45,780 bases of DNA. It comes from an uncultured Ectothiorhodospiraceae bacterium (GTDB lineage: Bacteria; Pseudomonadota; Gammaproteobacteria; GRL18). How positions within the stretch are numbered: the stretch's first letter is position 1; the number at the start of each line of letters is the position of its first letter. The notes beneath the pieces were generated by a model. That model ran no database searches. It was given only the letters and a program-made list of their open reading frames with translations, and had not been told where the DNA came from. The translations under genes and the position numbers were made by a program. The DNA is taken from assembly GCA_964391585.1 (NCBI GenBank), contig CAYMMQ010000001.1, forward strand, positions 1-45,780. Reading direction: 5' to 3'. Positions 9,301 through 29,348 of this stretch are shown here, piece by piece.

Positions 9301-12300
9301 AAGCAGACGAACTCGATCTCCCGTTTTATATAAGCGCGAATAACCCCGATTTTTATCCGTTTCGCTCATAAAAGGATTATTTATAAATCGCTCCCGAGTA
9401 AGGGTTTCTCTATGTAAATATCCACGAGTTATGCCTGCACCTGCAAGATATAATTCCCCTCCCATGCCCTGTGGTACGGGATTGAGTGCTGCATCCAGAA
9501 TATATACCCGAGTATTTTCCAGCGGCCGGCCAATTGACAAGTCTGATTCATTAACAGCGGCGATCGTTGAGGTAATCGCAGCTTCAGTTACACCATATTC
9601 TGCAAATAATTGATACTGAGATAAACGCTTAATCGTCTGCTGTGATGGCGTATCCCCACCATAAATAATAGTTTTAAGCTGAGTAAGTCGGTGAAACTCC
9701 AGACTATCCATTAGTGCTGCGGGAAGAATTAAATGGCTTGCCTGTGTCAACAATTCGTGATGAAAATCGATTGATTGACTTATCAATAAGCGCGCACCAC
9801 TTAATAAAGGCAGAAAAATACTGGCCACCGAGGCATCAAAAGCATAAGAAACCCCAAGATATATGGCACTATCAGGATTTAATTGATAACGCCTAACTTG
9901 TTGGCTCAGGGTATTCACCACATTTTGATGTTCTACCATGACTCCCTTAGGCTGTCCGGTTGTTCCTGAGGTATAAATCACATAGGCCAGACTAGCATTG
10001 TCGATCTCTTTTATCGGCAGACTCAGCTTATTTGAGCAATCCAAGCTATCTATAGCTAAGGTAAGTGGTGTGAGTTGATTTTCACGCAATACTTTATGTA
10101 AAAGTGATTGTTGCCCTATTCTAGTTAAAATTAATGCTGTCTTGGTATCCGACAAAATATAAGCGATTCTTGTCGCTGGAGAGTTTGGTTCGATAGGCAC
10201 ATAGGCGGCACCGGCTTTTAATACGGCTAAAATAGCAATAATCATCTCGGCACTACGATCCATAAATAGGGAAATTAAGGTATCGCATTTAAGTTCGCTT
10301 CCGGTTTTATGCAAATAGCTTTGACGTAAATAAGCGGCTAATTCAGTCGAACGCTGATCTAATTGTGCATAACTTAATTGTTCTCTTTCTGTAATGATGG
10401 CAATCTGATGTGGCGTATTGGCTGCCTGAAGACTAAATAAAGCATCTAAGCTAGTTTCAACCAGCGCGGTATCGGTTTGATTATAATCATAAAGTAAAGC
10501 CTGTTTTTCACTCTCATCAAGTAACTCCAACTGTTGATGAGGATATTGTAGCTTGTATGGAATTTGTTCTAAAATCCGTTGTAATTGATTCGTTAAACGC
10601 TGTATTCCTGTATGGCTAAATATTTCCCCAGCATAGCTGATACTGAGGTGTAATTTATCTGTTTGTTCAGAAACCAATAAGGATATAGGATAGTCGACTT
10701 TTTCTATCGACTCTCGAAAAACGCCCTTAATAGGCGCATCCTTTTCTGCCTCAACTTGAGGATAATTTTCAAAAACCAAAATAGAATGAAAAGCCCGTTG
10801 CCCTCCGGTTTGTAAGCTAGCCAATGGCAAAAAAGCATAATGATTTAATTCTGATATCCCTTGCTGAATCTGTTGTAATTGCTCCAGGGTGGTTGCATCC
10901 TGCCAGTTGATGATTAAAGGCAATGTATTAATATACAGACCGACACTTTGTTCAATACCATCAATAGGAATCGCTCTGCCTGACACCGTCGTACCCACAA
11001 TGGTTTGCTCATCTTGAGTATACAGTGCAATCAGTTTATGCCAGCCAAACTGAACCAGAGTATTCAAGCTCAAACCATTCTCACGCCCCATTTTTCTTAA
11101 AACCTGACAATTAAATGCCAGTTGAAAGGTCTCGGGCTGGTTAATATGACGAATATTATTTAAGTCAACTCTTTCATCAGTAAACAGATGGGTTAAATCA
11201 TTGGCATCTAAGCTCTCTCTAACATGTTCAGACCAATAGTCATCGACCAAATATTTATATTGAGCATAATACTGCTGGGCTTTCTGATAGGCTTTATCTT
11301 CAATAATCTCAAGCCTATTACCCTGTGAATGACTGAGGGTGGCATAAAACTCATGTACCTGCTGCAACAAGATAGGGACACTCCATCCGTCAGCAATACT
11401 ATGGTGCTGACTCAGCAATAATGTGTATAACTTTTCCTGTTTAATTAAATGTATTCTGAATAGGCCAGGCTGTTCCAGATTAAATGCTAGTTGCCGATCA
11501 TCCTGCTGAATCTTAGTTATTTTTTCCGCATTATTAGCAGTCTCATTACCAGTGGTCAGATCATGTAATATAAAATTAAGGGTAGCTTGCTTGTAAATCA
11601 ATTGCAGTGGTTGCTCTTCCCAATTAAAACCGGTGCGCAAAATAGGATAAGTGGCAATTGCCATTTCCCAAGCCTGACGGTAACAATTAATATCGATATC
11701 CTGTAGATAATCCATCAATATCTGTACCCGATAGGCATCATCACTTTTCTGACTCAATGCATGATAAATAAAACCCTGCTGTAAAGAATTAGCGGGATAG
11801 ATTGCCGCAACCTGATCATCAAAAATCCGTTCAAATAAATCTAGAGAAATATTCACATTAAAATCTGCAGGGGTAAAACTTATCAGTCCTTGTTCCAACT
11901 GCTTATTACAGTGTTGAACAATTTGCTCCAAGGCTGTCTTAAAACCATGAGTCAGTTTGTCCATTGTGCTATTATTTAATCGACCATCGAAGGTAAATTG
12001 CAATACACCGTCAATAATCATTGCATTGATGGTGAGCAAATTAATTTCTTGATTTTTTCGGCTCATAGAGAGTCCAGATGTAACATTGCTTAACTGCCAA
12101 ACATTAGCATCCGTTTCCTGCGAATTATTTAATATACCGAGATAATTGAAGGTAATTTTGGGCAGAGAAAATTCTATTTTTCTCGTTTCTCCCCCGCTAT
12201 CAAGATTTTCCTCAGCAGCATATGACAGGGCACCGAATCCCAGTCCTTTATCCGGAATTGCTCGTAGCATTTCTTTGGTTTGCTTAATAAGCAATGAGAG

Positions 12301-15300
12301 ATTGTCAGGATTAGCAGCTGAATAATTGTTTGAAGCTTGCCAGTTCGGACATTGCAATTTGATCGGAAACATACTAGTAAACCAACCGATAGTACGGGAT
12401 AAATCAATATCATTATCCAGATTCTCTCTACCATGCCCTTCCAAGGTGACTAAATTGACACTCTCATTACTACATTCAGATAAAGCGATGGCCAGTGCAC
12501 TAAGCAATAATTCATTAATTTCAGTATGATAAGCCTGATTGACGTATTGTTGTAATGAACGGGTCATTTGTGAAGAAAAAATTAAGTCACGACTAATAGC
12601 AACTTCGGATTCATCTCTTTTTAAGTTATCCCAAAATAGCGAGGAAACAGCAGAGGTTTCAGTCCAATAACGCCGTTGCGACTGGTTTTTTTTTGCATAA
12701 CGAGTCATCCGATCAACCCAATAGCGATAACTGGTCGTTTTAGTTAATAATTGTTCACCGTTATATAAGCTTTGTAAATCAGCACAAATAATTCGCCATG
12801 AAACCACATCAATCAGCAAATGATGGGCACAGAAAAAGATATAATTCGGCTCATTTTTCGTGCAATCACTATGATACACATACCCAATACGAAACAATGG
12901 CTGAGAGCCGTTATTGGCTATATCAAAACCTGTTTGCCAATCGGTCAGGACTGCTTCAATCTGATCTGCAGTCATGTCTTTGCTATCCAGAGTCTGTAAT
13001 TCAGGTGGTGGTATATACTGATGATATTGCTGATAAGTTTGTGTTTGATGAGCCTCATCTTTTTCACGGATAAAAGTAACTCTTAACATATCATGATGCA
13101 TCATTAATTGAGGAATGACGGCATTTAAACGCTTGCTATCCAGTGATGGTACCTGCAGCATAAAACTTTGATTCCAATGATGATAGTCAGGCAGCAACCC
13201 CAACTCTAATTGGGAAAAAAACCAGTCCTGAACAGGCAGCAAGGTAAAACTTCCGCTTAAAATCCCCTGCTCTGCCTGTATTTCAACTGGCGACTCAGTT
13301 TGTGAATATTGTAATATCTGTTTTAAGATCTTCAGATTAAAAATTTCTTTAACCGGCACCATTACGCCGATTTTTCTAAGTTGCGAGCTCAGCTGAATAC
13401 TTAAAATCGAATCACCACCAATACGGAAAAAATCATCATTCATTCCTACCGTAGCTAAATCCAGTAAATTCGCTACTATTTTACATAGTTGTGTTTCACT
13501 TTCATTGCTTGGCGCTAGATAATTGGTATTGCTTAGCTGGTTTGGTTTAGGCAAAGACTTACGATCCAGCTTACCATTTGAACTCTGTTTAAATTCTTCT
13601 AAAGCAATAAACATCGCTGGGATCATATACTCCGGCAAGCGTTTCGCTAACGCCAAACGTAAGGCATTTTCATCAATTTTGGCATTGGCCTGATAATAGG
13701 CATACAATTGTTTATGCTCGTGTAATTCATGTGCGATAACAGCTGATTGAATAATTTGCGGATATTGGTTGATAGCATCTTCGATTTCTCCAGTTTCAAT
13801 CCTTAAACCTCGAATTTTAACCTGAAAATCATTGCGTCCAATATATTCAATATTGCCATTACCTAATAACCTCACCAAGTCACCGGTTTTATACAATCGT
13901 TCATAAACCAACACTTTGTCGGTTGCAGTCATAAAAGGATTGGGAATAAATCGTTCCTTGGTTAGATCTGGACGATTTAAATACCCCTTTGAAACACCAA
14001 TACCAGCAATATACAATTCACCAACAACGCCTTGAGGCACGGGATTATGCCATTTATCTAAAATATACAAACGAGTATTATCAATAGGCAGTCCAATCGG
14101 AACGCTATCCCAATCATAACCTAATTTACTGCAGGGGAAATAAGTCGAATCAATCGCAGTTTCCGTTGGGCCATACAAGTTATGCAATTGAGTAAAATGG
14201 TTTTGGTAGTTTGAATTCAGATCATTAAATCGCTCAACACTCTGTTTGCTCAATGCTTCGCCAGAGCAAAAAACATAATGCAATTGCTCACTCAATTGAA
14301 TCTTTGAGCTGTGCAGAAATTCTATAAAAGAAACAAACATGGATGGCACAAAGTGAATAACAGTGATCTTCAGTTGCTGAATCACTTCATTAAGCAGCTG
14401 CGGATCTTTGTGAACTTCCGGTGCTGCAATCACAATACAAGCGCCATATAAATTGGCCCAGAATAATTCCCAACCAGAAACATCAAAGGTATATGGCGTT
14501 TTTTGTAAAACTCTATCAGCGGCTGTTAATGGATAGGTATTTTGCATCCAAGCAAGACGATTAACCAATGCCTGATGACTGACCATGACACCTTTAGGCC
14601 TTCCAGTCGTACCTGAGGTATAAATCACATTTGCCAGCTGATTTGGCTGTACATTCACGGTAACTCGGCTGGTCACTTCTTTTTTCCACTCCCCATTATC
14701 CACGGCAACACAATAGCTCATATTCGCTGACGCTTGCTTATCAATAATGTCAGATAAGTGATGACAATATTGCAACTGGGTTAATAGTAACGGTGATTTG
14801 CAATCATCCAGCATAAAGCCAATCCGAACATCCGGATATTGCGGGTCGATGGGCACATAGGCGCAACCCATCTTGAGAACAGCCAGAATACTAATAAGCA
14901 TTTCCAGTGACCGATCAAAGCATAAGGCAATCAAACTTTCACTCGGCAATTCTTGTTCTTTTCCCTGTTCTTGTGCTTGTTCCTGCCGCTGTTGTTGCAA
15001 ATAAAAACGTTGCAGATAATGGGCTAATTGATTGGAAGCTTCATCCAATTCCCGGTAAGTCATTTGTTGCTGATCAAAAATTACCGCTATCCGATCGGGG
15101 GTAGTTTTAGCCTGAGCACTAAACAGCTCATGTAAAGCCTCTGATGGATAAGGCCGGTCAGTTTGATTATAATCATATAACAAGGCCTGTCTCTCGGCTT
15201 CGCTTAGCAATGCTATCCGGCTATGTGGCTGTTCAAGCCCGGCAGGGATTTGCTCTAATATACGCTGCAGTTGCTCTGCCAAATACTCCGCCCTAGCCAC

Positions 15301-18300
15301 TTCCATTAACGCTGCATCATAACTCAGCCCAATATGTAACTGCTCTCCTTGCTCATGGACGATTAAGGCCAGCGGATAATCCACCTTTTCAATGGCCGCG
15401 CGTAATTCTCCACGCAATGGCGAATGCTCATCTGCCGTTGTCATCGGATAGTTTTCATACACTAATAAAGAATGAAACAATCGTCTACCTTGGCGTTGCA
15501 ACGAAACCAACGGTGTAAACGCATAATTGTTCAACTCCGCAATCTGCTGGTTAATGTGCTGTAACTGTGTCAGTACACTATTATTTTTGCTCCAATCAAT
15601 ACGCAAGGGCAGTGTATTGATATATAAACCAACACTTTGCTCAATACCATCAATCGGAATTGCCCGACCAGATACTGTTGTTCCTACAATGGTTTGTTCA
15701 TCCGTGCTGTAAACATTAATCAACTTATGCCAAGCAAATTGCACCATGCTATTCAAAGTCAATCCGTGCGCTTTAGCCACTTGTTTAAGGCTATTGCTCG
15801 ATAAGCTCAACTCTAAGCTTTGTGGTCGGCTCAGTGTGCGAATCGTATCTAAATCAACTGTTTTAGACAGCAAACTACTTAAATCATTGGCACTACTCAG
15901 ATATTGCTGCTGCTGTGCCCAGTAAGCTTGAGACTCTTCCGCATGGCGGGCATAATAGATTTGGGCCTCTAAATAGGCCTTGTCGGCAACGACCTTTATC
16001 GCTTCGCCGTTTTCTAAAGCAGCATAATACTCAGCAACTCGAGACAGAACAACCGGTTCACTCCAGCCATCGGCAATACTGTGATGCTCACTTTTGAGCA
16101 AGGTATAGTGCTGCTCATTGTGCTTTATCAAATGCAGACGCAATAGCGACGGTTTACTCAAGTCAAAAGCATGGCTACGGTCTTGTTGTTGAATACGGTC
16201 AATTTGCTCCTGAGGGTTGGAACAATCCGAACCATCATGCAACTGAAACTCTAGCGCTGTGGTTTTATGGATTAATTGCACCGGGGACTCTTCCCAGTTA
16301 AAACTGGTACGTAAGATGGGATAAGTTTCTAAGGTATATTCCCAAGCACGTTTGAAACGCTCAATATTAATTGCATGCGGATAATCAATTAAAATCTGCA
16401 CCCGATAAGCATCGTCTTGCGCATGACTTAAAGCATGATAGATAAAACCTTGTTGCAAGGAATTTGCCGCATAAATACCCTCAATATTATCGTTGTATAA
16501 GCGGTCAAACAACTCAAGGGATATTGCTGCATAAAAGTCACTGGGAGTCGCTTGCTGTTGTCCCTCATGGATACACTGCACACAATGGCTGACCAGGTTT
16601 TCTAAATGCGCTTTAAACGCTGCGCTAAAAAGGTTCAGTTGTTCTTGGTTCAGGCGGGTATTAACATCAAATTGTAATACCCCATCAATCACCAAGCCGT
16701 TAATATTAATCAGGTTGTTATCGTGATTAGAGGCTGCCATTGACTCACCACCATCCATATCAGCCAGTGGCCAGTCGTTCTCTTGTTGCTTTGAATCAGA
16801 ATTAAACACCCCTAAATAATTAAAACTAATCGGTGGCAAATGTTCTTGCTCTGCCGACAGCATTAAGGCGCCATAACCAATTCCCTTATCGGGGATGGTG
16901 CGTAGCATCTCTTTGGTTTGCCTGATGGCCAGCGAGAACTCTGTCTCATGCAGTAATCTCACCGGAAATAAGGTGGTAAACCAGCCTAAGGTCCGTGAGA
17001 CATCTAGCTTGGCATCGATGCTTTCCCGGCCATGCCCTTCTAAGGTAATCAAGTGCGCCACACTGCCACTTAATTCTGTCAAAGCTGTGGCTAATGCAGT
17101 CAGTAATAAATCATTTATCTCAGTAGAATAAGCCTGATTAGCCTGATACAAAAGCTGCTGTGTCAGCAAGCTTGAGAAGATAACTTTGCTATCACGCTGT
17201 TCATCCGTCGCAGCCGGCAAGCGACTATTTCCCTCCGAAGATAACACATCAGACCAGTACGCTTGTTGCGTTGGATGTTGTTGCGCATAGCGAGCAACGG
17301 CCGACACCCATTGACGATAACTCGCACTTTTGGGCAGCAAGGTTTCACCAGCATACAAGCTGCGCAAGTCTTCCGCAATAATCCGCCAGGAAACCGCATC
17401 AATAATTAGGTGATGGGCACTGAAAAAAACGTAGTTGCTCACTTGATGTTCAACGCGATAGTTGCTGACATACCCCACACTAAATAAGGGTTTGGCCACA
17501 TTAAACAGTTCATAATGACTTTGCCATTGGGTGAGTGCCTGACTCACCTCTTCAGAGCTCAGACCTTGTGCATCTAAGCATTGCAACTCAGGAGCGGTCA
17601 TTTGTGCCTGATAACGTTGCTGATAACAGACCTCGTTTGTTTCTTTTTTTATCTCTTGGCTAAAGCTAGTTCGCAACATATCATGATGCGCCATAAGCGT
17701 CACTAAGATGGCAGACAACCGGTGTGGTTCGAGCGCAGGGACTCTCAGCATAAAACATTGATTCCAATGCTGATAAGCGGGCAGCAAACCTGATTCCATT
17801 TGGGTAAAAAACCATTGCTGTACCGGCAATAGCGCAAAACTACCGCTTAAGAGACCTTGTTCACTATCCATCTGCGTTTGTGGCTGCGCCGATACCAACA
17901 TTCGTTTCACTGTTTTGTGCTGGAATATCGCCTTCACCGACAAATGAATATCCATTCTGCGTAATCGAGAACTCAGCTGAATACTTAAAATAGAATCTCC
18001 TCCAATTCGGAAAAAATCATCCTCAATACCCACTTGTTCAACGTTCAGCAACTCAGCAATGACATCACACACTTGACTTTCTTGTTCATTGCGCGGCGCA
18101 ACATAACCGCCACCGCTAAAGCTCGGTGACGGCAGTGCGCGGTAATCCAGCTTACCGTTAAGGGTCTGTTTAAATTCGCCTACAGCGATAAACTGGGCCG
18201 GTTGCATATAGTCCGGTAATTGCTGTTGCAGACTCTCTCGTAATGCTTCTTCATCAATAGCAAAAGCATCATCTTTCGTATAATACGCTAGCAGTTGTTT

Positions 18301-21258
18301 ATGACCTTGCCAATCATGGGCAACCACCACCGCCTGTACAATGCCAGGAAATTGTTTAATCAGGGCTTCTATTTCACCGGGTTCAATTCGAAATCCTCGA
18401 ATTTTAACCTGACTATCATTACGACCAATGTATTCAATATTGCCATTGTCCAACCAGCGAACCAAATCTCCGGTTTTATACATTCTGGTATGCCCATTTT
18501 GGGTGTCCATCTGGCTAGCAAAAGGATTAACCAGAAAACGCTCTCGGGTGAGTTGTTCACTGTTTAAATAACCCCGCGCCACACCAGCACCACCCACATA
18601 TAATTCACCGACTAGGCCGGGTGCCACCAGGTTCAAAGATTTATCAAGAATATAGGTTTTACGACCATTAATCGCTCGACCTATCGGTACGCTACCGTTG
18701 AATTCTTGGTGACAATTATAGGTGGTGGCAAAAGTAGTGGTTTCGGTCGGACCATAACCATTCAGTAAAAATTGCGGGCCCTGAGCATGATCTGACAAGG
18801 CCTTAATCAATCCAGGATCAAGCGCTTCACCCCCTGTGAGTAAATAACGAAGGGATTGAAACAAAGTATTATCGCTCAAATATAAACTATCAAACAGGGT
18901 CTTTGTCAGCCACAGTATGGTCACCTCAAACTCTTCAAGCTGTCGCTTGAATCGACCCAGGTTGGACAATAAGTCTTTGCTATTACTGGGTAAAACTAAT
19001 TTTGACCCATTCAGTAAAGCACCCCAGATTTCCAAGGTCGCCGCATCAAAAACCGGTGAGGCCAATTGCATAAAACAATCCGTCGGTTGTATCAACAAAT
19101 AGTCATTATTTTTAACCAATGACACCACCGCCGCATGCTCAACCATCACGCCCTTCGGATGTCCCGTAGTCCCCGAGGTATAAATCACATAAGCCAAATC
19201 ATCCATCCGTCCCGTATCAACGGGTGCTGTGCTCGGCGCTTGCACCCAGTCCGATGAGTGTTCTTCCACATTCAGTACGGCTCCGTTGAGCTGATGGCTA
19301 TTCATCACTTCTAGCAATGCAGTAACTCGGCTTTGACCCGTTAAGATTATTTCAGCCTCGGTATCGGCCAAAATATAGGCAATCCGCTCTGACGGATAGT
19401 CTGGATCTAGGGGGACATAAGCACCACCTGCCTTTAATATTGCCAGAATGGAAATTATCATTTCCACACTGCGATCAAAATACAACGCAATTAATTTGCC
19501 GCGTGGTATCACCGTGCCATATTGTTGTTCATAGATAGCACACAAATAATGAGCTAATTGATTTGAACGCATGTCTAATTCGGCATAACTCACTTGTTCA
19601 ATATCAAAAGATGATGTTTGTATTAAGGCTGTCGCCTGTGGGTAGCGCTTTGCTTGTTCACTAAACAATGCTTGGATCGATTGCAGTGGATAAGGTTGTT
19701 CCTCGGGGTTGTAATCATAAATTAACGCATTCCGCTCCACTTCACTGAGTAGACTATAACTGTTAATTAAGGCCTCAGAATTAGCGCTAATTTGTTGCAA
19801 CAAATAAACAAACCGATTAGCTAAAGTCTCTATGCTATGACGCTTATACAAAGAAGTCATATAAGCAATATCCAGATGCAATTGCTGCTGTGCATCCTCA
19901 CTCATAAATATTTCCAGATCAAACTTGGCTATCTTATATTGATCGTCTTCATACAGACGAAATGGCATATCATCTGCAAGTTGATTATCAAAATTCTGGA
20001 AGGTAAAAATAATATCAAATAAGGGGTGTCGCCCCGTATCACGTTGAATATCTAATAATTCAACTATTTTTCCAAAAGGCACATCCTGATTAGCCTGTGC
20101 TTCCATTACTCGCTTGGCAACTTGTGCTAAAAAGTCATCGAAGGATTGCTGTCCATACACCTGATTTCTAATAACCAAGGTATTGACAAAAAATCCGATC
20201 AGCTTTTCAATTCCAGGATAATGTCTATTCGCCGTTATAAAACCTAAACTAATATCTTGTTGATCGCTATATAGTGATATAAGAATATTGAAGGCACTCA
20301 GCAAATAGGTATATAAAGTCACACCACTCTTTTGAGCCAATTGCTTTATTTTAAGCGAAAGTTGCCGATCAATTACAAGCTGATAGCGTTCGCCAGAATA
20401 ATTAATATGCGAAGGCCTAGGAAAATCAGTTGGGAGAGCAAGTGATTGCATTCCATCCAGTCGTTGCTGCCAATAAGCCAATTGCTTATCTAACGCTCCC
20501 GATTGCAGATGGTATCTTTGCCAGAGGGAAAAATCTTTATATTGAATTATCAATTCAGGTAGCAGAGTAGTCTGATGCATTTTATCTGACCGATAAAAAT
20601 GGTTGATCTCTGCAAATAAAATATCAATACTCCAACCATCAAATGCAATGTGGTGAAAATTGATTAACAGATAGGTTTTTTCCGGTAGCGAGTATAAGGT
20701 GACAGCGATAGGTAAATCGCATGTTAAATCAAACTGATGATGAGCATCTTTGTTTAACTGAAGGGAAAAATGTTGCTCAGATGTTAATTCGAGATGAGCT
20801 ATTTTTAGCTCTGCTGCTATAACTTCTTGAAACGCATCATCATCTCCAGATTGTTTTATCAGCGTTCTTAAAACTTCATGACGTTGAACAACCTCATTTA
20901 TCGCTTTTTGCAAGCGATTGATTTCAGTACCGGCATTTATTTCCAGAACAATGGGAATATTATAGGCATTACTCCCCTGCTCATACTGCTCAATAAAATA
21001 CAGGCGCTCCTGAGCATAAGAAAGTACTGTTTGTTGCTCAGTAGATTTATAGATAATCGGCAGATGTGCATCACTAACAACTTGTGATGCCTTAAGTGTC
21101 TCTATAATTTCATTTTTATGCAGTTTAATTAAGGCAAACCACTCATTTTTATCGGCCACTTCTTGCAATAGCTTATATTTGAGTTTATTTCCTTCTTCCA
21201 CCCAGAGCAAAATCTTGTGTTGATTGATCAGATATAGCAGTTGTATGACATCGTCCAT
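3352..21258 (-). CDS. Non-ribosomal peptide synthetase NRPS-2, four modules: dock-C-A-T-E / C-A-T-E / C-A-T-E / C-A-T-TE
   Basis: 5,968 aa. Four A domains carry the core SGTTG(H/R/Q)PKG. T-domain Ser codons are at 17992-17994, 13408-13410, 8845-8847 and 4249-4251. Three E domains read HHL(I/L)(I/V)D(A/V)VSW. The first C domain has HHIAFDGWS, and three post-E C domains have HHSIADGWS (His codons at 16081-16086, 11401-11406, 6868-6873). The TE has GWSLGG with its Ser codon at 3838-3840. Confidence 0.97.
   Translation of the reverse strand: [5968 protein letters not shown]
3355..7281 (-). other. NRPS-2 module 4 (termination): C(DCL-like)-A(Gly-like)-T-TE. Approximate borders: C 6001-7281, A 4390-6000, T 4144-4350, TE 3355-4116
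   Basis: Motifs seen: [10 protein letters not shown] (C), [20 protein letters not shown] (A), [14 protein letters not shown] (T), and HPGSGG...GWSLGG with a C-terminal His (TE). The hand-derived code is DILQLGVIWK. Confidence 0.85.
7309..11811 (-). other. NRPS-2 module 3: C(DCL-like)-A(unassigned specificity)-T-E. Approximate borders: C 10528-11811, A 8986-10527, T 8743-8946, E 7309-8706
   Basis: Motifs seen: [10 protein letters not shown] (C), [20 protein letters not shown] (A), [14 protein letters not shown] (T), LPIQHWFF and [10 protein letters not shown] (E). The A domain has atypical FDASVAS and EYGVTE motifs. Confidence 0.8.
11839..16485 (-). other. NRPS-2 module 2: C(DCL-like)-A(Ser-like)-T-E. 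Approximate borders: C 15244-16485, A 13549-15231, T 13303-13509, E 11839-13281
   Basis: Motifs seen: [12 protein letters not shown] and [10 protein letters not shown] (C), [19 protein letters not shown] (A), [14 protein letters not shown] (T), LPVQDWFF and [10 protein letters not shown] (E). The hand-derived code is DVWHFSLIDK. The A domain carries a Q/E-rich insert ([16 protein letters not shown]). Confidence 0.85.
15233..19746. repeat. Copy A of a 4,514-bp direct repeat (A-T-E-C unit, inside NRPS-2)
   Basis: I checked the two breakpoint regions plus five 60-nt lines spread across the repeat against the sequence offset by +6,449, and found no mismatch. The encoded ~1,505 aa read the same in both proteins by eye. 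Six antisense or out-of-frame shadow ORFs recur with exactly the same offset and sequence. Confidence 0.95.
16519..21045 (-). other. NRPS-2 module 1: C(LCL-like)-A(Val-like)-T-E. Approximate borders: C 19759-21045, A 18130-19746, T 17890-18093, E 16519-17862
   Basis: Motifs seen: [10 protein letters not shown] and HHIAFDGWS (C), [20 protein letters not shown] and [10 protein letters not shown] (A), [14 protein letters not shown] (T), LPVQQWFF and [10 protein letters not shown] (E). The hand-derived specificity code is DALWLGGTFK. Borders are about +/-60 nt. Confidence 0.85.
21085..21258 (-). other. N-terminal docking domain of NRPS-2 (TubC-N / beta-hairpin docking type)
   Basis: aa 1-58 read [31 protein letters not shown]...[15 protein letters not shown]. 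This fits the LL..L...gI.LWvE.g.L.Y....L......i..HK.EI...L pattern of TubC N-terminal docking domains. It precedes the C domain, which starts near [10 protein letters not shown]. Confidence 0.6.
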
Positions 21259-21266
21259 TAAATTAC

Positions 21267-24200
21267 CTATAACTCGCCGCTTTCATAAATTTCTTCATTC
21301 ATTATTTTACTGTTTATTAAGTTCGCCAAATTGCGAATCGTACTATTTGTCATAAAGTCCGTATAACTTAAATCCACATTAAATTCATTATTAATCTGAT
21401 GCAAAATACTAATTGATACAATAGAATTAACCCCTAATCGAAAAAAGTCATCTAAAACACCAACCGTTTTACAAGCTAATATCTTAGTGAAAACCTGTAT
21501 CAGCCATTGCTCTGTTGCATTGTCCTCAAAGCTAGGTTGTTCCGGTAAAATAGCACCGTTGCAACTATCTGTATTTACCGTAGCTGTACTAGCCGTTACT
21601 GTATGAGCTCGTAACTTAACCTTTTTTGCGATAAGCTGGCGTTCAGCTTCGCTTAACACGTTTATCCGACTATGAGGCTGCTCAAGCCCGGCAGGGATTT
21701 GCTCTAATATACGCTGCAGTTGCTCTGCCAAATACTCCGCCCTAGCCACTTCCATTAACGCTGCATCATAACTCAGCCCAATATGTAACTGCTCTCCTTG
21801 CTCATGGACGATTAAGGCCAGCGGATAATCCACCTTTTCAATGGCCGCGCGTAATTCTCCACGCAATGGCGAATGCTCATCTGCCGTTGTCATCGGATAG
21901 TTTTCATACACTAATAAAGAATGAAACAATCGTCTACCTTGGCGTTGCAACGAAACCAACGGTGTAAACGCATAATTGTTCAACTCCGCAATCTGCTGGT
22001 TAATGTGCTGTAACTGTGTCAGTACACTATTATTTTTGCTCCAATCAATACGCAAGGGCAGTGTATTGATATATAAACCAACACTTTGCTCAATACCATC
22101 AATCGGAATTGCCCGACCAGATACTGTTGTTCCTACAATGGTTTGTTCATCCGTGCTGTAAACATTAATCAACTTATGCCAAGCAAATTGCACCATGCTA
22201 TTCAAAGTCAATCCGTGCGCTTTAGCCACTTGTTTAAGGCTATTGCTCGATAAGCTCAACTCTAAGCTTTGTGGTCGGCTCAGTGTGCGAATCGTATCTA
22301 AATCAACTGTTTTAGACAGCAAACTACTTAAATCATTGGCACTACTCAGATATTGCTGCTGCTGTGCCCAGTAAGCTTGAGACTCTTCCGCATGGCGGGC
22401 ATAATAGATTTGGGCCTCTAAATAGGCCTTGTCGGCAACGACCTTTATCGCTTCGCCGTTTTCTAAAGCAGCATAATACTCAGCAACTCGAGACAGAACA
22501 ACCGGTTCACTCCAGCCATCGGCAATACTGTGATGCTCACTTTTGAGCAAGGTATAGTGCTGCTCATTGTGCTTTATCAAATGCAGACGCAATAGCGACG
22601 GTTTACTCAAGTCAAAAGCATGGCTACGGTCTTGTTGTTGAATACGGTCAATTTGCTCCTGAGGGTTGGAACAATCCGAACCATCATGCAACTGAAACTC
22701 TAGCGCTGTGGTTTTATGGATTAATTGCACCGGGGACTCTTCCCAGTTAAAACTGGTACGTAAGATGGGATAAGTTTCTAAGGTATATTCCCAAGCACGT
22801 TTGAAACGCTCAATATTAATTGCATGCGGATAATCAATTAAAATCTGCACCCGATAAGCATCGTCTTGCGCATGACTTAAAGCATGATAGATAAAACCTT
22901 GTTGCAAGGAATTTGCCGCATAAATACCCTCAATATTATCGTTGTATAAGCGGTCAAACAACTCAAGGGATATTGCTGCATAAAAGTCACTGGGAGTCGC
23001 TTGCTGTTGTCCCTCATGGATACACTGCACACAATGGCTGACCAGGTTTTCTAAATGCGCTTTAAACGCTGCGCTAAAAAGGTTCAGTTGTTCTTGGTTC
23101 AGGCGGGTATTAACATCAAATTGTAATACCCCATCAATCACCAAGCCGTTAATATTAATCAGGTTGTTATCGTGATTAGAGGCTGCCATTGACTCACCAC
23201 CATCCATATCAGCCAGTGGCCAGTCGTTCTCTTGTTGCTTTGAATCAGAATTAAACACCCCTAAATAATTAAAACTAATCGGTGGCAAATGTTCTTGCTC
23301 TGCCGACAGCATTAAGGCGCCATAACCAATTCCCTTATCGGGGATGGTGCGTAGCATCTCTTTGGTTTGCCTGATGGCCAGCGAGAACTCTGTCTCATGC
23401 AGTAATCTCACCGGAAATAAGGTGGTAAACCAGCCTAAGGTCCGTGAGACATCTAGCTTGGCATCGATGCTTTCCCGGCCATGCCCTTCTAAGGTAATCA
23501 AGTGCGCCACACTGCCACTTAATTCTGTCAAAGCTGTGGCTAATGCAGTCAGTAATAAATCATTTATCTCAGTAGAATAAGCCTGATTAGCCTGATACAA
23601 AAGCTGCTGTGTCAGCAAGCTTGAGAAGATAACTTTGCTATCACGCTGTTCATCCGTCGCAGCCGGCAAGCGACTATTTCCCTCCGAAGATAACACATCA
23701 GACCAGTACGCTTGTTGCGTTGGATGTTGTTGCGCATAGCGAGCAACGGCCGACACCCATTGACGATAACTCGCACTTTTGGGCAGCAAGGTTTCACCAG
23801 CATACAAGCTGCGCAAGTCTTCCGCAATAATCCGCCAGGAAACCGCATCAATAATTAGGTGATGGGCACTGAAAAAAACGTAGTTGCTCACTTGATGTTC
23901 AACGCGATAGTTGCTGACATACCCCACACTAAATAAGGGTTTGGCCACATTAAACAGTTCATAATGACTTTGCCATTGGGTGAGTGCCTGACTCACCTCT
24001 TCAGAGCTCAGACCTTGTGCATCTAAGCATTGCAACTCAGGAGCGGTCATTTGTGCCTGATAACGTTGCTGATAACAGACCTCGTTTGTTTCTTTTTTTA
24101 TCTCTTGGCTAAAGCTAGTTCGCAACATATCATGATGCGCCATAAGCGTCACTAAGATGGCAGACAACCGGTGTGGTTCGAGCGCAGGGACTCTCAGCAT

Positions 24201-27200
24201 AAAACATTGATTCCAATGCTGATAAGCGGGCAGCAAACCTGATTCCATTTGGGTAAAAAACCATTGCTGTACCGGCAATAGCGCAAAACTACCGCTTAAG
24301 AGACCTTGTTCACTATCCATCTGCGTTTGTGGCTGCGCCGATACCAACATTCGTTTCACTGTTTTGTGCTGGAATATCGCCTTCACCGACAAATGAATAT
24401 CCATTCTGCGTAATCGAGAACTCAGCTGAATACTTAAAATAGAATCTCCTCCAATTCGGAAAAAATCATCCTCAATACCCACTTGTTCAACGTTCAGCAA
24501 CTCAGCAATGACATCACACACTTGACTTTCTTGTTCATTGCGCGGCGCAACATAACCGCCACCGCTAAAGCTCGGTGACGGCAGTGCGCGGTAATCCAGC
24601 TTACCGTTAAGGGTCTGTTTAAATTCGCCTACAGCGATAAACTGGGCCGGTTGCATATAGTCCGGTAATTGCTGTTGCAGACTCTCTCGTAATGCTTCTT
24701 CATCAATAGCAAAAGCATCATCTTTCGTATAATACGCTAGCAGTTGTTTATGACCTTGCCAATCATGGGCAACCACCACCGCCTGTACAATGCCAGGAAA
24801 TTGTTTAATCAGGGCTTCTATTTCACCGGGTTCAATTCGAAATCCTCGAATTTTAACCTGACTATCATTACGACCAATGTATTCAATATTGCCATTGTCC
24901 AACCAGCGAACCAAATCTCCGGTTTTATACATTCTGGTATGCCCATTTTGGGTGTCCATCTGGCTAGCAAAAGGATTAACCAGAAAACGCTCTCGGGTGA
25001 GTTGTTCACTGTTTAAATAACCCCGCGCCACACCAGCACCACCCACATATAATTCACCGACTAGGCCGGGTGCCACCAGGTTCAAAGATTTATCAAGAAT
25101 ATAGGTTTTACGACCATTAATCGCTCGACCTATCGGTACGCTACCGTTGAATTCTTGGTGACAATTATAGGTGGTGGCAAAAGTAGTGGTTTCGGTCGGA
25201 CCATAACCATTCAGTAAAAATTGCGGGCCCTGAGCATGATCTGACAAGGCCTTAATCAATCCAGGATCAAGCGCTTCACCCCCTGTGAGTAAATAACGAA
25301 GGGATTGAAACAAAGTATTATCGCTCAAATATAAACTATCAAACAGGGTCTTTGTCAGCCACAGTATGGTCACCTCAAACTCTTCAAGCTGTCGCTTGAA
25401 TCGACCCAGGTTGGACAATAAGTCTTTGCTATTACTGGGTAAAACTAATTTTGACCCATTCAGTAAAGCACCCCAGATTTCCAAGGTCGCCGCATCAAAA
25501 ACCGGTGAGGCCAATTGCATAAAACAATCCGTCGGTTGTATCAACAAATAGTCATTATTTTTAACCAATGACACCACCGCCGCATGCTCAACCATCACGC
25601 CCTTCGGATGTCCCGTAGTCCCCGAGGTATAAATCACATAAGCCAAATCATCCATCCGTCCCGTATCAACGGGTGCTGTGCTCGGCGCTTGCACCCAGTC
25701 CGATGAGTGTTCTTCCACATTCAGTACGGCTCCGTTGAGCTGATGGCTATTCATCACTTCTAGCAATGCAGTAACTCGGCTTTGACCCGTTAAGATTATT
25801 TCAGCCTCGGTATCGGCCAAAATATAGGCAATCCGCTCTGACGGATAGTCTGGATCTAGGGGGACATAAGCACCACCTGCCTTTAATATTGCCAGAATGG
25901 AAATTATCATTTCCACACTGCGATCAAAATACAACGCAATTAATTTGCCGCGTGGTATCACCGTGCCATATTGTTGTTCATAGATAGCACACAAATAATG
26001 AGCTAATTGATTTGAACGCATGTCTAATTCGGCATAACTCACTTGTTCAATATCAAAAGATGATGTTTGTATTAAGGCTGTCGCCTGTGGGTAGCGCTTT
26101 GCTTGTTCACTAAACAATGCTTGGATCGATTGCAGTGGATAAGGTTGTTCCTCGGGGTTGTAATCATAAATTAACGCATTCCGCTCCACTTCACTCAATA
26201 GACTGTAGCATTCAAGTGGGACGTCTATATTTTCATGAAGATTAGAGAATATAGTTCGTAAGATTTTACTTAAAGTCAGTATTTGGGCCTTGCTATAGGA
26301 TTTATCTCGATATTCAATACGAAGTTCTAGTTGTTCTTGCAAGTCAAACTCAAAATAAAGTTCGTATTTAACATGTGCAGGTAAAGCCTCATTCTGAGTA
26401 ACATACCATTGACTATCCCGCGCCATTTTTGGCTCTAGGGTCATAAATATATTAGGCAATTTTTCTAGCGGATCGCTAGTCTGTCGAATTTGCTGTAATA
26501 ACTCGTCATAAGGAAGTGTGCTTAGCAAGCTTTGCTGTACACCCTCAAAAACAGTCTGTAATAAGTGGACAAAGTTTTCCTTCTCATCTATTTGGATACA
26601 ACTAATTTCATTAGCCAAAAAATTACCAAACACCGGCTCGCTCAGTGCAGATCGTAAAGATTTTACACCTCCAACACTTAAGCAGCTTTCATCACTTATT
26701 TTATATAATAACAAATAGGTAACACTGAGCAATAATGAGTAAAAACTAACGCCCTGTTGTTTAGCTAAATTACATAAATGCTGAGTATCATGTAGCGAAA
26801 GAATTTCAACGATAAAGTGTCCTACACTATCATTTTGATGACTTACTATTTTATCTATTGTAAAATCATTACTTCCAGCAAATAAATTCAGTGGATGAAT
26901 ATTCTCCAGTAAAAACTGAAAATCTTGACGCGTTGGTGGAAGCTGAATTGTAGCAGTAGCTTTGGGCAGTTGCGCCTGACTATCCTTTAATAAAATTTTA
27001 AGTTGGGGCACAAACAAGTTATACATGGCATCACCATCAGCAATAAGATGGTGAAAAATTGCTGCTAATTTATACCCTGATTCACCAATTTGAAATAAAG
27101 CGAAACGATATAGAGGTCCTTGTTGTAGATCAAATGGCTGGTTGAGCAAAAGACTCAACTCTCGTTTATATGCTTGTTGATCAGCTATTTGATGAAATGT

Positions 27201-29348
27201 TACTAGCTGAGCAGAATTATCTAAAACCGGTCCAGCAATAAACCGCTTATACGATTCATCACAGCAACAACGCAAGATAAGATGATGATTGATCACACGG
27301 ATGAGTGCTTGATTGAGTTGCTCGATATTCACACGAACAGTTTTAAAATCAATACTTATATGTTCGTTATATAACACCTCATGACTGATAAGCTGATGAC
27401 TGATAATCAATTGCTGCATAGGGTTAAATGCCAGACTATGAATATCCATAAATTCTTCAGTATTCTGACCAGCTGATTGCTCAGCTTCGATAAAAGTGGC
27501 TAATTGTCTGATGGTTTGACAAGATACAATTTCCCGAACGCTAATCAAATAACCCGAGTGGCGCAGTTGCGCAGCAAGTTGAATACTGAGAATCGAGTCA
27601 CCACCAATAGCAAAAAAATTATCTTCGATTCCAACGTGTGGTAAATCAAGAAGCTTTCCGACCAAGTGGCACAAGAGCTCTTGTAAGCTATTTTCTGCTG
27701 CTTGATATTGATCCGACTGCCCCTGCAATAATTTAAAATTAACTTCGGGTAAGGCTGTTCTGTCCAATTTGCCGTTTTGGGTCACTGCAAATGATTTCAC
27801 TTGTTTTAGCAAACTAGGGAGCATATATTCAGGTAATTGTTTGCTTAACCAATGATTTAATTGCTCAGTATCAATGGAGTGATCCGCACTAAAATAGCCA
27901 ATTAAATATTGTTGTCCTACATGTTCAGCAACTTTCACAACACACTGCTTTACACTAAAAAACTGGCTAATAGTATTTTCAACCTCTCCCAGTTCAATGC
28001 GCAAACCTCGAAGTTTTATTTGCGAGTCGTTGCGGCCCAAATATTCAATATTTCCATCCCCAAGTTGGCGCACCATATCACCCGTTTTATATAAACGCGT
28101 ATAACCAGCTAGTTCATCATCAGCAGTCAAATATGGATTTGCAATAAAACGTTCCTGTGTCAATTCTGGCTTATTAAGATAAGCTCGTGCTAAACCAGCA
28201 CCACCGATATATAATTCACCTGTATTTCCAACTGCTACTCTATGCTGTTTATCATCTAGAATATATACTAGTGTATTAGCAATGGGCCGCCCTATTGGCA
28301 CACTATTATGTACCTCATTAAGTTGGCTACAGGCAAAGAATGTAGAGTCAATAGTTGTTTCAGTCGGACCGTACAAATTATGTAACTGAGCTTGGCTCTG
28401 TGCATCTAAGGAGTTGTTAAATTGCTCCACCGTTTTTAATGCTAAAGACTCTCCTGAGCAAAAAACATAACGTAACTGGACAGCAAATTGTTTCTGCGTT
28501 GCAGCAAGATAGTCCTGAAATGATTGCAGCATTGAAGGTACAAAATGCAATACGGTAACATCATATTCGCAGATCAACTGTTCTAATTCTTCTGGATATT
28601 TATGACTCTCTGGTGGTGCAATAACGATACTTGCGCCATACAAGTTAGCCCAAAGTAACTCCCATACAGAGACGTCAAAAGTGTAAGGCGTTTTTTGCAA
28701 GATTCGATCATCAGAAGATATAGGATAAGTTTCCTGCATCCAAGAAATACGATTAAACAATGCAGCATGCTCTATCATCACGCCTTTAGGTTTACCCGTA
28801 GTCCCAGATGTGTATATAACATAAGCCAGATTTTCTTTGTCTAGCATATTGCACAAAGGAGTTAGACTTTCATGAATCCAATCATTTTCATCCATTACCA
28901 CACATTGCGCTTCAAGCCTAATCTGCTGAAGAATCATTGTCAGTTTGTCTTGGTATTGGCTTTGACAACAAATAAGAGGAGAATTGATATCTTGTAAAAT
29001 ATAACTGATGCGATCATCTGGATAATGGGGATCAATAGGAACATAAGCAGCGCCAGCCTTAAAAATGGCTAATATAGCGATAATCATTTCCACACTGCGA
29101 TCAAGGATTAACGCAATCAAAGTCTCTGTTGCTAAGACCTTGCCATATTTAAGCTGATATCGATTTTTCAAATAATGAGCTAGTTGGTTTGAACGTTCAT
29201 CCAAATCCTGGTAAGTTAGGTGTTGGTCTTGAAAAATCAGTGCAATAGCTTCTGGTGTAACTTTAAGTTGTTCTGAAAACAACTGAAGGATGGTAGATGC
29301 AGAGTGGTTTTTATCAGTGTGATTAATTAAATCTTCTTGGGTAATCAT
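21267..29348 (-). CDS. Non-ribosomal peptide synthetase NRPS-1 (initiation): A-T / C-A-T-E / C-T (no A domain in the last module)
   Basis: 2,693 aa. It starts directly with an A domain (AYVIYTSGTTGKPKGVMIEH). T Ser codons are at 27594-27596, 24441-24443 and 21423-21425. It has a divergent C domain (FHHLIADGDAM), then A-T-E-C identical to NRPS-2 module 1, then a linker and a final carrier domain (DDFFRLGVNSIVSI). The TAG stop lies 8 nt before the NRPS-2 ATG. Confidence 0.97.
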   Translation of the reverse strand: MITQEDLINHTDKNHSASTILQLFSEQLKVTPEAIALIFQDQHLTYQDLDERSNQLAHYLKNRYQLKYGKVLATETLIALILDRSVEMIIAILAIFKAGAAYVPIDPHYPDDRISYILQDINSPLICCQSQYQDKLTMILQQIRLEAQCVVMDENDWIHESLTPLCNMLDKENLAYVIYTSGTTGKPKGVMIEHAALFNRISWMQETYPISSDDRILQKTPYTFDVSVWELLWANLYGASIVIAPPESHKYPEELEQLICEYDVTVLHFVPSMLQSFQDYLAATQKQFAVQLRYVFCSGESLALKTVEQFNNSLDAQSQAQLHNLYGPTETTIDSTFFACSQLNEVHNSVPIGRPIANTLVYILDDKQHRVAVGNTGELYIGGAGLARAYLNKPELTQERFIANPYLTADDELAGYTRLYKTGDMVRQLGDGNIEYLGRNDSQIKLRGLRIELGEVENTISQFFSVKQCVVKVAEHVGQQYLIGYFSADHSIDTEQLNHWLSKQLPEYMLPSLLKQVKSFAVTQNGKLDRTALPEVNFKLLQGQSDQYQAAENSLQELLCHLVGKLLDLPHVGIEDNFFAIGGDSILSIQLAAQLRHSGYLISVREIVSCQTIRQLATFIEAEQSAGQNTEEFMDIHSLAFNPMQQLIISHQLISHEVLYNEHISIDFKTVRVNIEQLNQALIRVINHHLILRCCCDESYKRFIAGPVLDNSAQLVTFHQIADQQAYKRELSLLLNQPFDLQQGPLYRFALFQIGESGYKLAAIFHHLIADGDAMYNLFVPQLKILLKDSQAQLPKATATIQLPPTRQDFQFLLENIHPLNLFAGSNDFTIDKIVSHQNDSVGHFIVEILSLHDTQHLCNLAKQQGVSFYSLLLSVTYLLLYKISDESCLSVGGVKSLRSALSEPVFGNFLANEISCIQIDEKENFVHLLQTVFEGVQQSLLSTLPYDELLQQIRQTSDPLEKLPNIFMTLEPKMARDSQWYVTQNEALPAHVKYELYFEFDLQEQLELRIEYRDKSYSKAQILTLSKILRTIFSNLHENIDVPLECYSLLSEVERNALIYDYNPEEQPYPLQSIQALFSEQAKRYPQATALIQTSSFDIEQVSYAELDMRSNQLAHYLCAIYEQQYGTVIPRGKLIALYFDRSVEMIISILAILKAGGAYVPLDPDYPSERIAYILADTEAEIILTGQSRVTALLEVMNSHQLNGAVLNVEEHSSDWVQAPSTAPVDTGRMDDLAYVIYTSGTTGHPKGVMVEHAAVVSLVKNNDYLLIQPTDCFMQLASPVFDAATLEIWGALLNGSKLVLPSNSKDLLSNLGRFKRQLEEFEVTILWLTKTLFDSLYLSDNTLFQSLRYLLTGGEALDPGLIKALSDHAQGPQFLLNGYGPTETTTFATTYNCHQEFNGSVPIGRAINGRKTYILDKSLNLVAPGLVGELYVGGAGVARGYLNSEQLTRERFLVNPFASQMDTQNGHTRMYKTGDLVRWLDNGNIEYIGRNDSQVKIRGFRIEPGEIEALIKQFPGIVQAVVVAHDWQGHKQLLAYYTKDDAFAIDEEALRESLQQQLPDYMQPAQFIAVGEFKQTLNGKLDYRALPSPSFSGGGYVAPRNEQESQVCDVIAELLNVEQVGIEDDFFRIGGDSILSIQLSSRLRRMDIHLSVKAIFQHKTVKRMLVSAQPQTQMDSEQGLLSGSFALLPVQQWFFTQMESGLLPAYQHWNQCFMLRVPALEPHRLSAILVTLMAHHDMLRTSFSQEIKKETNEVCYQQRYQAQMTAPELQCLDAQGLSSEEVSQALTQWQSHYELFNVAKPLFSVGYVSNYRVEHQVSNYVFFSAHHLIIDAVSWRIIAEDLRSLYAGETLLPKSASYRQWVSAVARYAQQHPTQQAYWSDVLSSEGNSRLPAATDEQRDSKVIFSSLLTQQLLYQANQAYSTEINDLLLTALATALTELSGSVAHLITLEGHGRESIDAKLDVSRTLGWFTTLFPVRLLHETEFSLAIRQTKEMLRTIPDKGIGYGALMLSAEQEHLPPISFNYLGVFNSDSKQQENDWPLADMDGGESMAASNHDNNLININGLVIDGVLQFDVNTRLNQEQLNLFSAAFKAHLENLVSHCVQCIHEGQQQATPSDFYAAISLELFDRLYNDNIEGIYAANSLQQGFIYHALSHAQDDAYRVQILIDYPHAINIERFKRAWEYTLETYPILRTSFNWEESPVQLIHKTTALEFQLHDGSDCSNPQEQIDRIQQQDRSHAFDLSKPSLLRLHLIKHNEQHYTLLKSEHHSIADGWSEPVVLSRVAEYYAALENGEAIKVVADKAYLEAQIYYARHAEESQAYWAQQQQYLSSANDLSSLLSKTVDLDTIRTLSRPQSLELSLSSNSLKQVAKAHGLTLNSMVQFAWHKLINVYSTDEQTIVGTTVSGRAIPIDGIEQSVGLYINTLPLRIDWSKNNSVLTQLQHINQQIAELNNYAFTPLVSLQRQGRRLFHSLLVYENYPMTTADEHSPLRGELRAAIEKVDYPLALIVHEQGEQLHIGLSYDAALMEVARAEYLAEQLQRILEQIPAGLEQPHSRINVLSEAERQLIAKKVKLRAHTVTASTATVNTDSCNGAILPEQPSFEDNATEQWLIQVFTKILACKTVGVLDDFFRLGVNSIVSISILHQINNEFNVDLSYTDFMTNSTIRNLANLINSKIMNEEIYESGEL
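21324..22934 (-). other. NRPS-1 terminal A-less module: C(DCL-like)-linker-T. Approximate borders: C 21693-22934, linker 21528-21692, T 21324-21527
   Basis: The C domain is identical to the NRPS-2 C at 15244-16485. After ...LEQPHSRINVLSEAERQ, only about 50 aa of S/T-rich linker (LIAKKVKLRAHTVTASTATVNTDSCNG...) precede a carrier domain (FFRLGVNSIVSISIL). No adenylation motifs lie in between. Confidence 0.8.
21682..26195. repeat. Copy B of the 4,514-bp direct repeat (A-T-E-C unit, inside NRPS-1)
   Basis: Same evidence as copy A. Identity stops at 21681/15232 (c vs t) and at 26196/19747 (c vs g). Short stretches of partial similarity continue beyond both ends, in the coding for LSEAERQ and YSLLSE. 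Confidence 0.95.
22968..27437 (-). other. NRPS-1 module 2: C(divergent)-A(Val-like)-T-E. Approximate borders: C 26196-27437, A 24579-26195, T 24339-24542, E 22968-24311
   Basis: The C domain has FNPMQQLII...FHHLIADGDAMYNL. The A-T-E part is nucleotide-identical to 16519-19746 (offset 6,449). Confidence 0.85.
27495..29348 (-). other. NRPS-1 loading module A(Ser-like)-T. Approximate borders: A 27747-29348, T 27495-27701
   Basis: No N-terminal C or starter domain. Motifs seen: FDVSVWE, YVFCSGES, HNLYGPTETTIDST and NGKLDRTALP. The hand-derived code is DVWHFSLIDK. The T motif is FFAIGGDSILSIQL. Confidence 0.8.

Follow-up and report, generated by a model that had tools for sequence, protein, structure and literature searches.

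Recombination is regarded as the main force in the evolution of nonribosomal peptide synthetases (NRPSs), with breakpoints inside the core of the adenylation (A) domain; the interface and native linker between the condensation (C) and A domains are usually kept, and only exceptionally are several domains exchanged together (Baunach et al., 2021; PMC8097286). In the lipopeptide NRPSs of Pseudomonas, A domains of one cluster resemble one another more closely than they do their orthologs in sister clusters, identity falls sharply within a few nucleotides, and self-reinforcing recombination hot spots have been proposed (Gotze et al., 2019; PMC7472662). Gene conversion is also widespread in polyketide synthase (PKS) assembly lines, where GRINS (duplicated, homogenized regions of odd composition) show their strongest composition effect at third codon positions; few such regions are reported from proteobacteria, and NRPS modules seldom carry them (Nivina et al., 2021; PMC8256042). 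Concerted evolution in duplicated bacterial genes such as tufA/tufB and the rrn operons has been surveyed in an account that mentions neither NRPSs nor GC effects (PMC6053082), and in the exchange unit (XU) concept the fusion point is the WNATE motif (Bozhuyuk et al., 2018, summarized in PMC7242659). Here we analyzed a 45,780-nt stretch of DNA from an uncultured Ectothiorhodospiraceae bacterium (contig CAYMMQ010000001.1, positions 1 to 45,780; hereafter the window), in which two adjacent NRPS genes, nrpsA and nrpsB, share a long exact direct repeat encoding a complete A domain, carrier (T), epimerase (E) and C domain (A-T-E-C). We propose that the two copies are probably kept identical through recurrent gene conversion of an old duplication, a case of concerted evolution with tract ends set by homology.

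Direct string comparison of positions 15233-19746 with 21682-26195 gave 0 mismatches over 4,514 nt at an offset of 6,449, and extension at either end gained zero further bases. A preliminary description of this DNA had reported such a repeat, and its exactness holds, with scattered mismatches absent. In the 30 nt next to the exact run, identity is only 73% on the left and 60% on the right, and over 200–1,000 nt it is ~30–45%. Self-BLASTN of the window joined the pair at 99.74% over 4,565 nt with the partly similar edges included, and the remaining paralogous NRPS module pairs reached 64–70% over long stretches, with maxima of 75–86% over motif patches of 60–160 nt; the other modules are clearly diverged (~65% nucleotide identity), as had been described. 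The repeat cannot have arisen by chance.

Both copies lie on the minus strand, an orientation the preliminary description left unstated, and each forms a frame-intact A-T-E-C unit with its preceding C-A linker, in nrpsA at 21682..26195 (aa 1052-2556) and in nrpsB at 15233..19746 (aa 505-2009); exact identity, domains, motifs and specificity code all enter this assignment. From the open reading frame list, Pfam, phmmer and core motifs, nrpsA (21267..29348, minus strand; 2,693 aa) reads A1-T1-C2-(Ar-Tr-Er-Cr)-filler-T3, the parentheses enclosing the repeat, and nrpsB (3352..21258, minus strand; 5,968 aa) reads docking-Ca-(Ar-Tr-Er-Cr)-A5-T5-E5-C6-A6-T6-E6-C7-A7-T7-TE, with a weak TubC_N docking match at its N-terminus and a Thioesterase (TE) domain at its C-terminus. 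The intergenic gap is 8 nt (21259-21266). All catalytic motifs are intact in both copies, namely A-domain motifs A3 (TSGTTGxPK), A8 (GRxDxQVK) and A10 (NGKxD), the carrier serine (GGDSI), the epimerase motifs HHxxxD, EGHGRE, GxGYG and FNYLG, and the condensation motif HHxxxDG. With domain calls backed by Pfam and NCBIfam matches, each copy has the composition of an NRPS elongation unit, and the claim that a whole unit recurs in two adjacent genes stands. The Stachelhaus code of Ar is DALWLGGTFK, which we take to be Val-like; A1 and A5 share the code DVWHFSLIDK, presumably Ser-like. The predicted product reads Ser-D-Val-X-D-Val-D-Ser-.... Cr is predicted to be DCL-type from its position after an E domain. 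Compared with the other modules of the cluster, the repeat unit is 47–49% identical in E and 54–59% in C, no farther from them than they are from one another.

Both borders lie at a C-domain end in C-A linker coding, where they had previously been placed. On the N-terminal side, both genes read YSLL immediately followed by SEVERNALIYDYN (motif YSLL, then SEVERN); on the C-terminal side, AGLE precedes QPHSRI(NV/AL)LSEAERQ. The N-terminal tract edge (19747..19758, partner 26196-26207, minus strand) codes YSLL and is identical at 9/12 nt. Homology begins at (Y/F)SLL-SExER because the C domains preceding the copies, C2 in nrpsA and Ca in nrpsB, share only 26% protein identity, and this edge marks the start of homology between two otherwise unrelated domains. 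C2 (26196-27431) also matches general NRPS models very weakly (40.6 bits, versus 295 bits for Ca at 19747-20985) and may be an unusual C subtype. The C-terminal tract edge (15194..15232, partner 21643-21681, minus strand) codes QPHSRI(AL/NV)LSEAERQ. Codon-level alignment showed that the 15 codons past this border are homologous between the copies and encode nearly the same peptide, with mostly synonymous differences; the edge motif is far more alike between the copies than to the ends of C6 or C7. Flanks of partial similarity are thus present as described, but their lengths are 12 nt on the N-terminal side and ~39–45 nt on the C-terminal side instead of 15–30 nt. The synonymous differences in the 15 codons were overlooked at that stage, as were the A-less C-T module and the island of raised GC at third codon positions (GC3) and four-fold degenerate sites (GC4) presented below. 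The unique 1,935-nt spacer between the copies (19747..21681, minus strand) contains T3, the stop codon, the 8-nt gap, the docking segment and Ca, as first reported, and additionally the last 15 codons of Cr and the linker and a 37-aa filler.

A metagenome scan recovered one close relative, L011 (metagenome contig Ga0209692_10000266), which has 82% amino acid identity over nrpsB aa 1-504 (docking-Ca). This contig is collinear with the window across both NRPS genes at ~76% nucleotide identity and has the same 8-nt intergenic gap. The comparison with a related genome that had been suggested for this locus could thus be made, and L011 proved to carry both copies as a near-identical pair of its own: positions 3417-8411 and 11501-16495 match at 99.64% over 4,995 nt, with a 4,795-nt exact core and all 18 mismatches in the first 168 nt and the last 32 nt. 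This clustering of mismatches at the ends is a hint of non-reciprocal transfer. Homology in the L011 repeat starts at the (Y/F)SLL codon, as in the window, and at the other end it passes the linker and extends ~112 aa into A3/A5, beyond which the A cores are unrelated (42–50% nucleotide identity). Gene A of L011 encodes 3,233 aa (A1-T1-C2-Ar-Tr-Er-Cr-A3-T3) and is 540 aa longer than nrpsA of the window because A3 (code DALLSGAVCK) is kept. Further along the same two A domains of L011 (~17150-17560 versus 9150-9510), the C-terminal parts around A8-A10 are 74–77% identical at the nucleotide level, in contrast to the cores, so A3 and A5 differ mainly in the specificity core; this likeness suggests either that the original duplication took in a longer stretch or that conversion left an older patch there.

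We then compared the nrpsA and nrpsB copies of the window and L011 in a four-way codon alignment of ~1,500 codons. Within each genome the two copies are 100% identical, whereas all four pairings between the genomes fall at 61–83% (mean ~76%); in the unique flanks, by comparison, positional orthologs are 77–88% and paralogs ~40% identical. Identity within genomes thus exceeds identity between genomes, as in concerted evolution, and this pattern favors what the preliminary description had offered as its secondary option, that the copies are being actively homogenized. Synonymous divergence (dS) between the window and L011 is ~1.0–1.6, and the ratio of nonsynonymous to synonymous divergence (dN/dS) is 0.05–0.11, in repeat and flanks alike, which points to a unit that is old, functional and under purifying selection. 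Purifying selection alone was rejected as the cause of identity between the copies, since synonymous sites are identical as well. With 0 differences in 4,514 nt, inter-copy divergence is below ~7e-4, or <0.3% of the distance between the window and L011, and such near-zero divergence is found independently in the two lineages, which argues for frequent homogenization far more than for one chance event. A pattern of this kind has its established mechanism in non-reciprocal homologous recombination (gene conversion), the process inferred here, and homologous recombination or gene conversion had been correctly named as the class of mechanism.

What did not survive the comparison is the view of the repeat as a very recent event, a freshly caught example. 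A single, very recent duplication or copy-and-paste of an exchange-unit-like A-T-E-C block from one gene to the other, with breakpoints in the linkers, would account for 0 mismatches in 4.5 kb, for borders in C-A linker coding and for the divergence of all other modules. However, L011, at a dS >1, holds both copies in matching positions, with homology starting upstream at the same point; the C-domain end and linker of the recipient were already homologous and carried synonymous differences of their own; and the GC island in nrpsB overruns the present border as far as the L011 tract end, the mark of an older, longer tract. We regard such a recent duplication as highly improbable. Positions, gene order, the 8-nt gap and the (Y/F)SLL start are the same in both lineages, as expected if duplication preceded their split, and because L011 shows the same layout and homology-start codon at a dS of ~1–1.6, the duplication appears to be old and only the latest homogenization recent. 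Simple tandem duplication by unequal crossing-over was likewise rejected, given the 1.9 kb of unique, orthologously conserved sequence between the copies (the spacer is 77–88% identical to its L011 counterpart at the nucleotide level).

Collapsed de Bruijn graph nodes and consensus polishing are also well known to yield exact multi-kilobase repeats, and L011 comes from a metagenome assembly in which a simple loop (x-R-spacer-R-y) would reuse a single R node. The second copy could on this account be non-existent, or merely similar modules could have been collapsed or over-polished to one consensus. Yet each copy joins in frame to its own unique sequence on either side, four in all, with sensible domain orders, the assembled path is the only linear path through all unique segments, and two independent assemblies of organisms only 76% identical arrive at the same topology. 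Real mismatches are retained at the L011 tract edges, and assemblers do not merge repeats less than ~98–99% identical, which leaves the contrast with 76% between genomes intact. Collapse or over-polishing could turn ~99% into 100%, above all in the metagenome contig, but cannot create the pattern, and we consider an assembly artefact unlikely as the explanation.

The two lineages differ in what follows the nrpsA copy. In the window no A domain is found there: the linker ends at LSEAERQ, and a 37-aa filler (21525..21635, minus strand; 111 nt) leads to T3 (21315..21509, minus strand), the terminal carrier of nrpsA, which matches Pfam PP-binding at 52.6 bits and has its serine in the motif LGVNSI. 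The filler stands where L011 has ~574 aa (A3 and linker), a position settled by aligning the nrpsA tail globally with L011 gene A, as protein and as nucleotides, and T3 itself is 83% identical between the window and L011 at the nucleotide level. By this alignment, the filler is the scar left by loss of the A domain. No source of the 111 nt was detected when both the window and L011 were searched in all frames. The peptide CNGAILPEQP in the nrpsA tail had been considered as an A10 remnant and was dropped, as alignment to L011 gives it no support. The window encodes no stand-alone adenylating enzyme, which leaves three options for T3: loading in trans, loading by A1 or Ar, or being skipped. In a search with the segment comprising the C-domain end and T3, contiguous C-T didomains were found in other NRPSs, and no close relatives of the nrpsA segment were returned. 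Loss of A3 also bears on the position of the downstream border, which sits in the linker in the window because the A domain that followed was deleted; this linker breakpoint is therefore a by-product of the A3 deletion and not the mark of an exchange-unit junction.

Base composition sets the repeat apart from its surroundings in both lineages. GC3 is 0.43 in the window repeat versus 0.32 in the rest of both NRPS genes (p=4e-16), and in L011 it is 0.505 versus 0.32 (p=2e-37), the steps falling exactly on the borders of the repeat; GC4 is 0.54 versus 0.345 in the window and 0.70 versus 0.39 in L011. The rise in synonymous GC is confined to the converted tract and steps at its borders, as GC-biased gene conversion (gBGC) would have it. 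Across the tract the profile is a plateau; a dome shape, which would mark an effect of conversion dose, is not evident in it. The N-terminal part of A5 in nrpsB (14764..15232, minus strand; aa 2010-2165), which is not repeated in the window and lies inside the repeat in L011, is GC-enriched as well (GC4 0.545 versus a background of 0.345, p=0.004). The best GC3 segment in nrpsB extends to ~aa 2226, and the end of enrichment (~aa 2165-2226) coincides with the L011 tract end, so enrichment beyond the present nrpsB border indicates a former, longer extent of the tract.

The GC-rich N-terminal part of A5 suggests that nrpsB keeps the ancestral context of the repeat unit. The nrpsB position is also probably ancestral because the adjacency of docking segment, Ca and Ar recurs in L011 and in L010, an ENA metagenome contig (61% GC) that is a distant homolog at 45–54% amino acid identity and likewise has docking-Ca followed by an Ar-like module. 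The gene junction of L010 (1112-1121) reads A-T-stop, an 8-nt gap and docking-C-A, with the carrier motif LGLNSI (compare LGVNSI in the window), which makes the split between the two synthetase genes far older than the clade of the window and L011.

Import of GC-richer foreign DNA at both positions, either before the split and ameliorating since or as separate imports, would make the GC island a relic. The distinct GC3 and GC4, an enterobacterial-like preference for NNG/NNC in four-fold codon families and the existence of GC-rich homologous clusters such as L010 (54% to Ar-Tr-Er) fit this idea. However, the E and C domains of the unit are no farther from the other modules than those are from one another, a donor search gave best matches of 45–53% against 48% for the rest of the cluster, with none closer, and the identity within genomes is left unexplained. 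In addition, four-fold sites are ~85% randomized between the window and L011 (identity 0.378 versus 0.270 expected in the repeat and 0.382 versus 0.266 outside), and the correlation of S/W (G or C versus A or T) state at these sites is weak (phi 0.097; confidence interval (CI) 0.004–0.19). Under a model that assumes homogeneous rates, a passive relic would require an ancestral GC4 of ~1.16, and no less than 0.93 at the CI limit. A foreign relic is, in our judgment, very unlikely.

With synonymous sites so far randomized between the lineages, a GC bias that is active and linked to conversion is likely: the island is better explained by a process acting only in the tract than by a relic, and the obvious candidate is GC-biased repair of the heteroduplexes formed in conversion. 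Lassalle and colleagues reportedly described GC-biased gene conversion in 2015, recombining DNA being said to tend towards higher GC. The stronger statement, that intragenomic conversion is itself GC-biased and, by recurring in two AT-rich lineages, has driven GC4 exactly inside the tract from ~0.35–0.39 to 0.54 (window) and 0.70 (L011) and held it there against AT-biased mutation, seems to us evenly balanced between true and false. To our knowledge, no intragenomic converting pair has been described whose tract forms a sharp GC4 island in an AT-rich bacterium.

Recurrent gene conversion of an old duplication would bring these features together as follows. A unit of ~5 kb, consisting of the C-A linker, a Val-like A domain, T, E, C and the first ~112 aa of the next A domain, would have been duplicated long ago, one copy settling in nrpsA and the other in nrpsB. 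Recurrent intrachromosomal gene conversion would then overwrite one copy by the other, keeping the two near-identical within a genome as the unit diverged by ~24% between lineages under purifying selection. Tract limits would be limits of homology, upstream at the junction with the unrelated C2 and Ca, and originally downstream where the specificity-conferring cores of the following A domains diverge. In the window lineage, A3 after the nrpsA copy was lost, leaving a C-T module, and usable downstream homology now ends in the C-A linker; the 15 codons beside the deletion may be too near the homology end for conversion and would have drifted synonymously since. If conversion is GC-biased, a synonymous GC island would form across the tract in both lineages.

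Several points weigh against this account. Recurrence rests on two lineages, with one related genome found, and one conversion in each lineage shortly before sampling would also fit, a coincidence required twice and yet not impossible. A collapsed repeat graph in either assembly would make the perfect identity partly a matter of construction, with a true value of maybe ~99%. Conversion of the RecA type needs stretches of identity, so the origin of the dispersed duplication is not explained by it alone. For the GC bias, two-fold T/C sites (Phe, Tyr, His) shift little, which is not what a simple gBGC model predicts, and this step of the argument draws on unpolarized substitutions.

The repeat shares with the Pseudomonas lipopeptide case (PMC7472662) within-cluster segments that are more alike than orthologs, and a sharp drop in identity. 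In Pseudomonas, mostly A domains or C-A didomains are exchanged, starting just C-terminal of the C-A linker, whereas here the tract is 4.5–5 kb of A-T-E-C (with the N-terminal part of the next A), spans two genes, starts at the junction of C domain and linker and coincides with a GC island; moreover, the pair has stayed identical across a split with a dS >1. The ancestral downstream border, 112 aa into the next A domain and before its divergent core, fits the breakpoint rule of PMC8097286. Unlike that norm, the upstream border parts the linker from its C domain, and the unit stands behind two C domains that are barely related. In common with tufA/tufB and the rrn operons (PMC6053082), paralogs are more alike within a genome than orthologs between genomes over long time spans; known long-lived cases of prokaryotic concerted evolution are mostly housekeeping genes, unlike an NRPS repeat.

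GRINS are delimited by >500 bp at >80% identity within a cluster together with a mean absolute GC and TA skew >0.15 (150-nt windows, 30-nt step; PMC8256042). The repeat is well inside these limits in length and identity (4,514 nt at 100%), and it shares with GRINS homogenized duplicates in one assembly line and a composition anomaly at third positions. Its skews are below 0.15 (GC 0.113 and TA 0.072 in the window; 0.119 and 0.082 in L011) and equal to those of non-repeat regions. A GRINS element was ruled out on this basis, the anomaly being raised G+C instead.

The likeness to exchange units is one of logic only. As in the XU concept, an A-T-(E)-C unit is joined to foreign upstream C domains in the C-A linker region, and to this extent the exchange-unit reading in the preliminary description was sound. 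WNATE does not bound the unit on both sides: the upstream border, between LL and SEVERN, lies ~12 aa before YDYN(P/Q)(E/T)(E/D) (such as YDYNPEE), the equivalent of WNATE, and the ancestral downstream border lies 112 aa inside an A domain, where that reading does not hold. The repeat is also a resident duplicate and not a swap between pathways.

Homologs of the cluster are sparse in the collections searched. Species-representative genomes scanned with nrpsB aa 1-504 gave only relatives at 33–46% identity, the closest homolog in the protein database was 48% identical, and no plasmid matched the whole repeat region in megablast. For the proteins of nrpsA, the beta-lactamase-fold gene and ComA, exact look-ups yielded no identical record. 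Neighboring genes encode an ABC exporter, a DUF697 protein, the beta-lactamase-fold protein, a phosphopantetheinyl transferase (PPTase) and an outer-membrane efflux protein (OEP) in DNA of ~33% GC, and this neighborhood points to a Gram-negative host. The beta-lactamase-fold (PF00144) gene (29607-31025, minus strand) lies directly upstream of nrpsA on the same strand. Genes of the PF00144 type in clusters for D-amino-acid-rich peptides often encode D-stereospecific peptidases with roles in resistance or maturation.

Two further features lie outside the repeat. The E6 coding region of nrpsB contains a perfect 34-nt palindrome (8311-8344) with halves CATCTTGAACAAACAAG and CTTGTTTGTTCAAGATG and the center AAGCTT; it codes DILNKQACLFKM in a variable loop, with no insertion relative to E5 or Er, and its chance expectation is ~3e-6 in 46 kb. 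Diverged inverted copies of a gene pair (Na/sulfate-symporter-like and ABC_sub_bind-like; ~65–70% nucleotide identity) at 32203-34778 (plus strand) and 39466-41960 (minus strand) flank a block of OEP, periplasmic-binding and SPFH genes, adjoined by a gene for ComA (phosphosulfolactate synthase; 31440-32237). These inverted pairs and ComA hint at sulfonate metabolism or transport tied to the cluster.

Gene conversion among modules is known from PKSs (PMC8256042) and from the A domains of Pseudomonas NRPSs (PMC7472662), and the repeat joins these cases. Less usual are a whole A-T-E-C tract over two genes, an upstream border between C domain and linker, persistence across a deep split, and a matching GC island. 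An identical linker-A-T-E-C unit that stands in frame, with its motifs intact, behind C domains only 26% identical offers natural support for joining units between C domain and linker, and the ancestral downstream border respects the C-A interface, with the specificity-determining A cores staying outside the tract. Two copies, sharp borders and a former tract segment set aside by a datable deletion make the locus a test bed for GC bias in bacterial conversion, which is debated. If conversion here is indeed GC-biased, the island would record gBGC in bacteria with unusual clarity at a single locus, and NRPS conversion would have a compositional signature distinct from that of GRINS. For genome scans, an exact repeat dates only the last homogenization and never the duplication.

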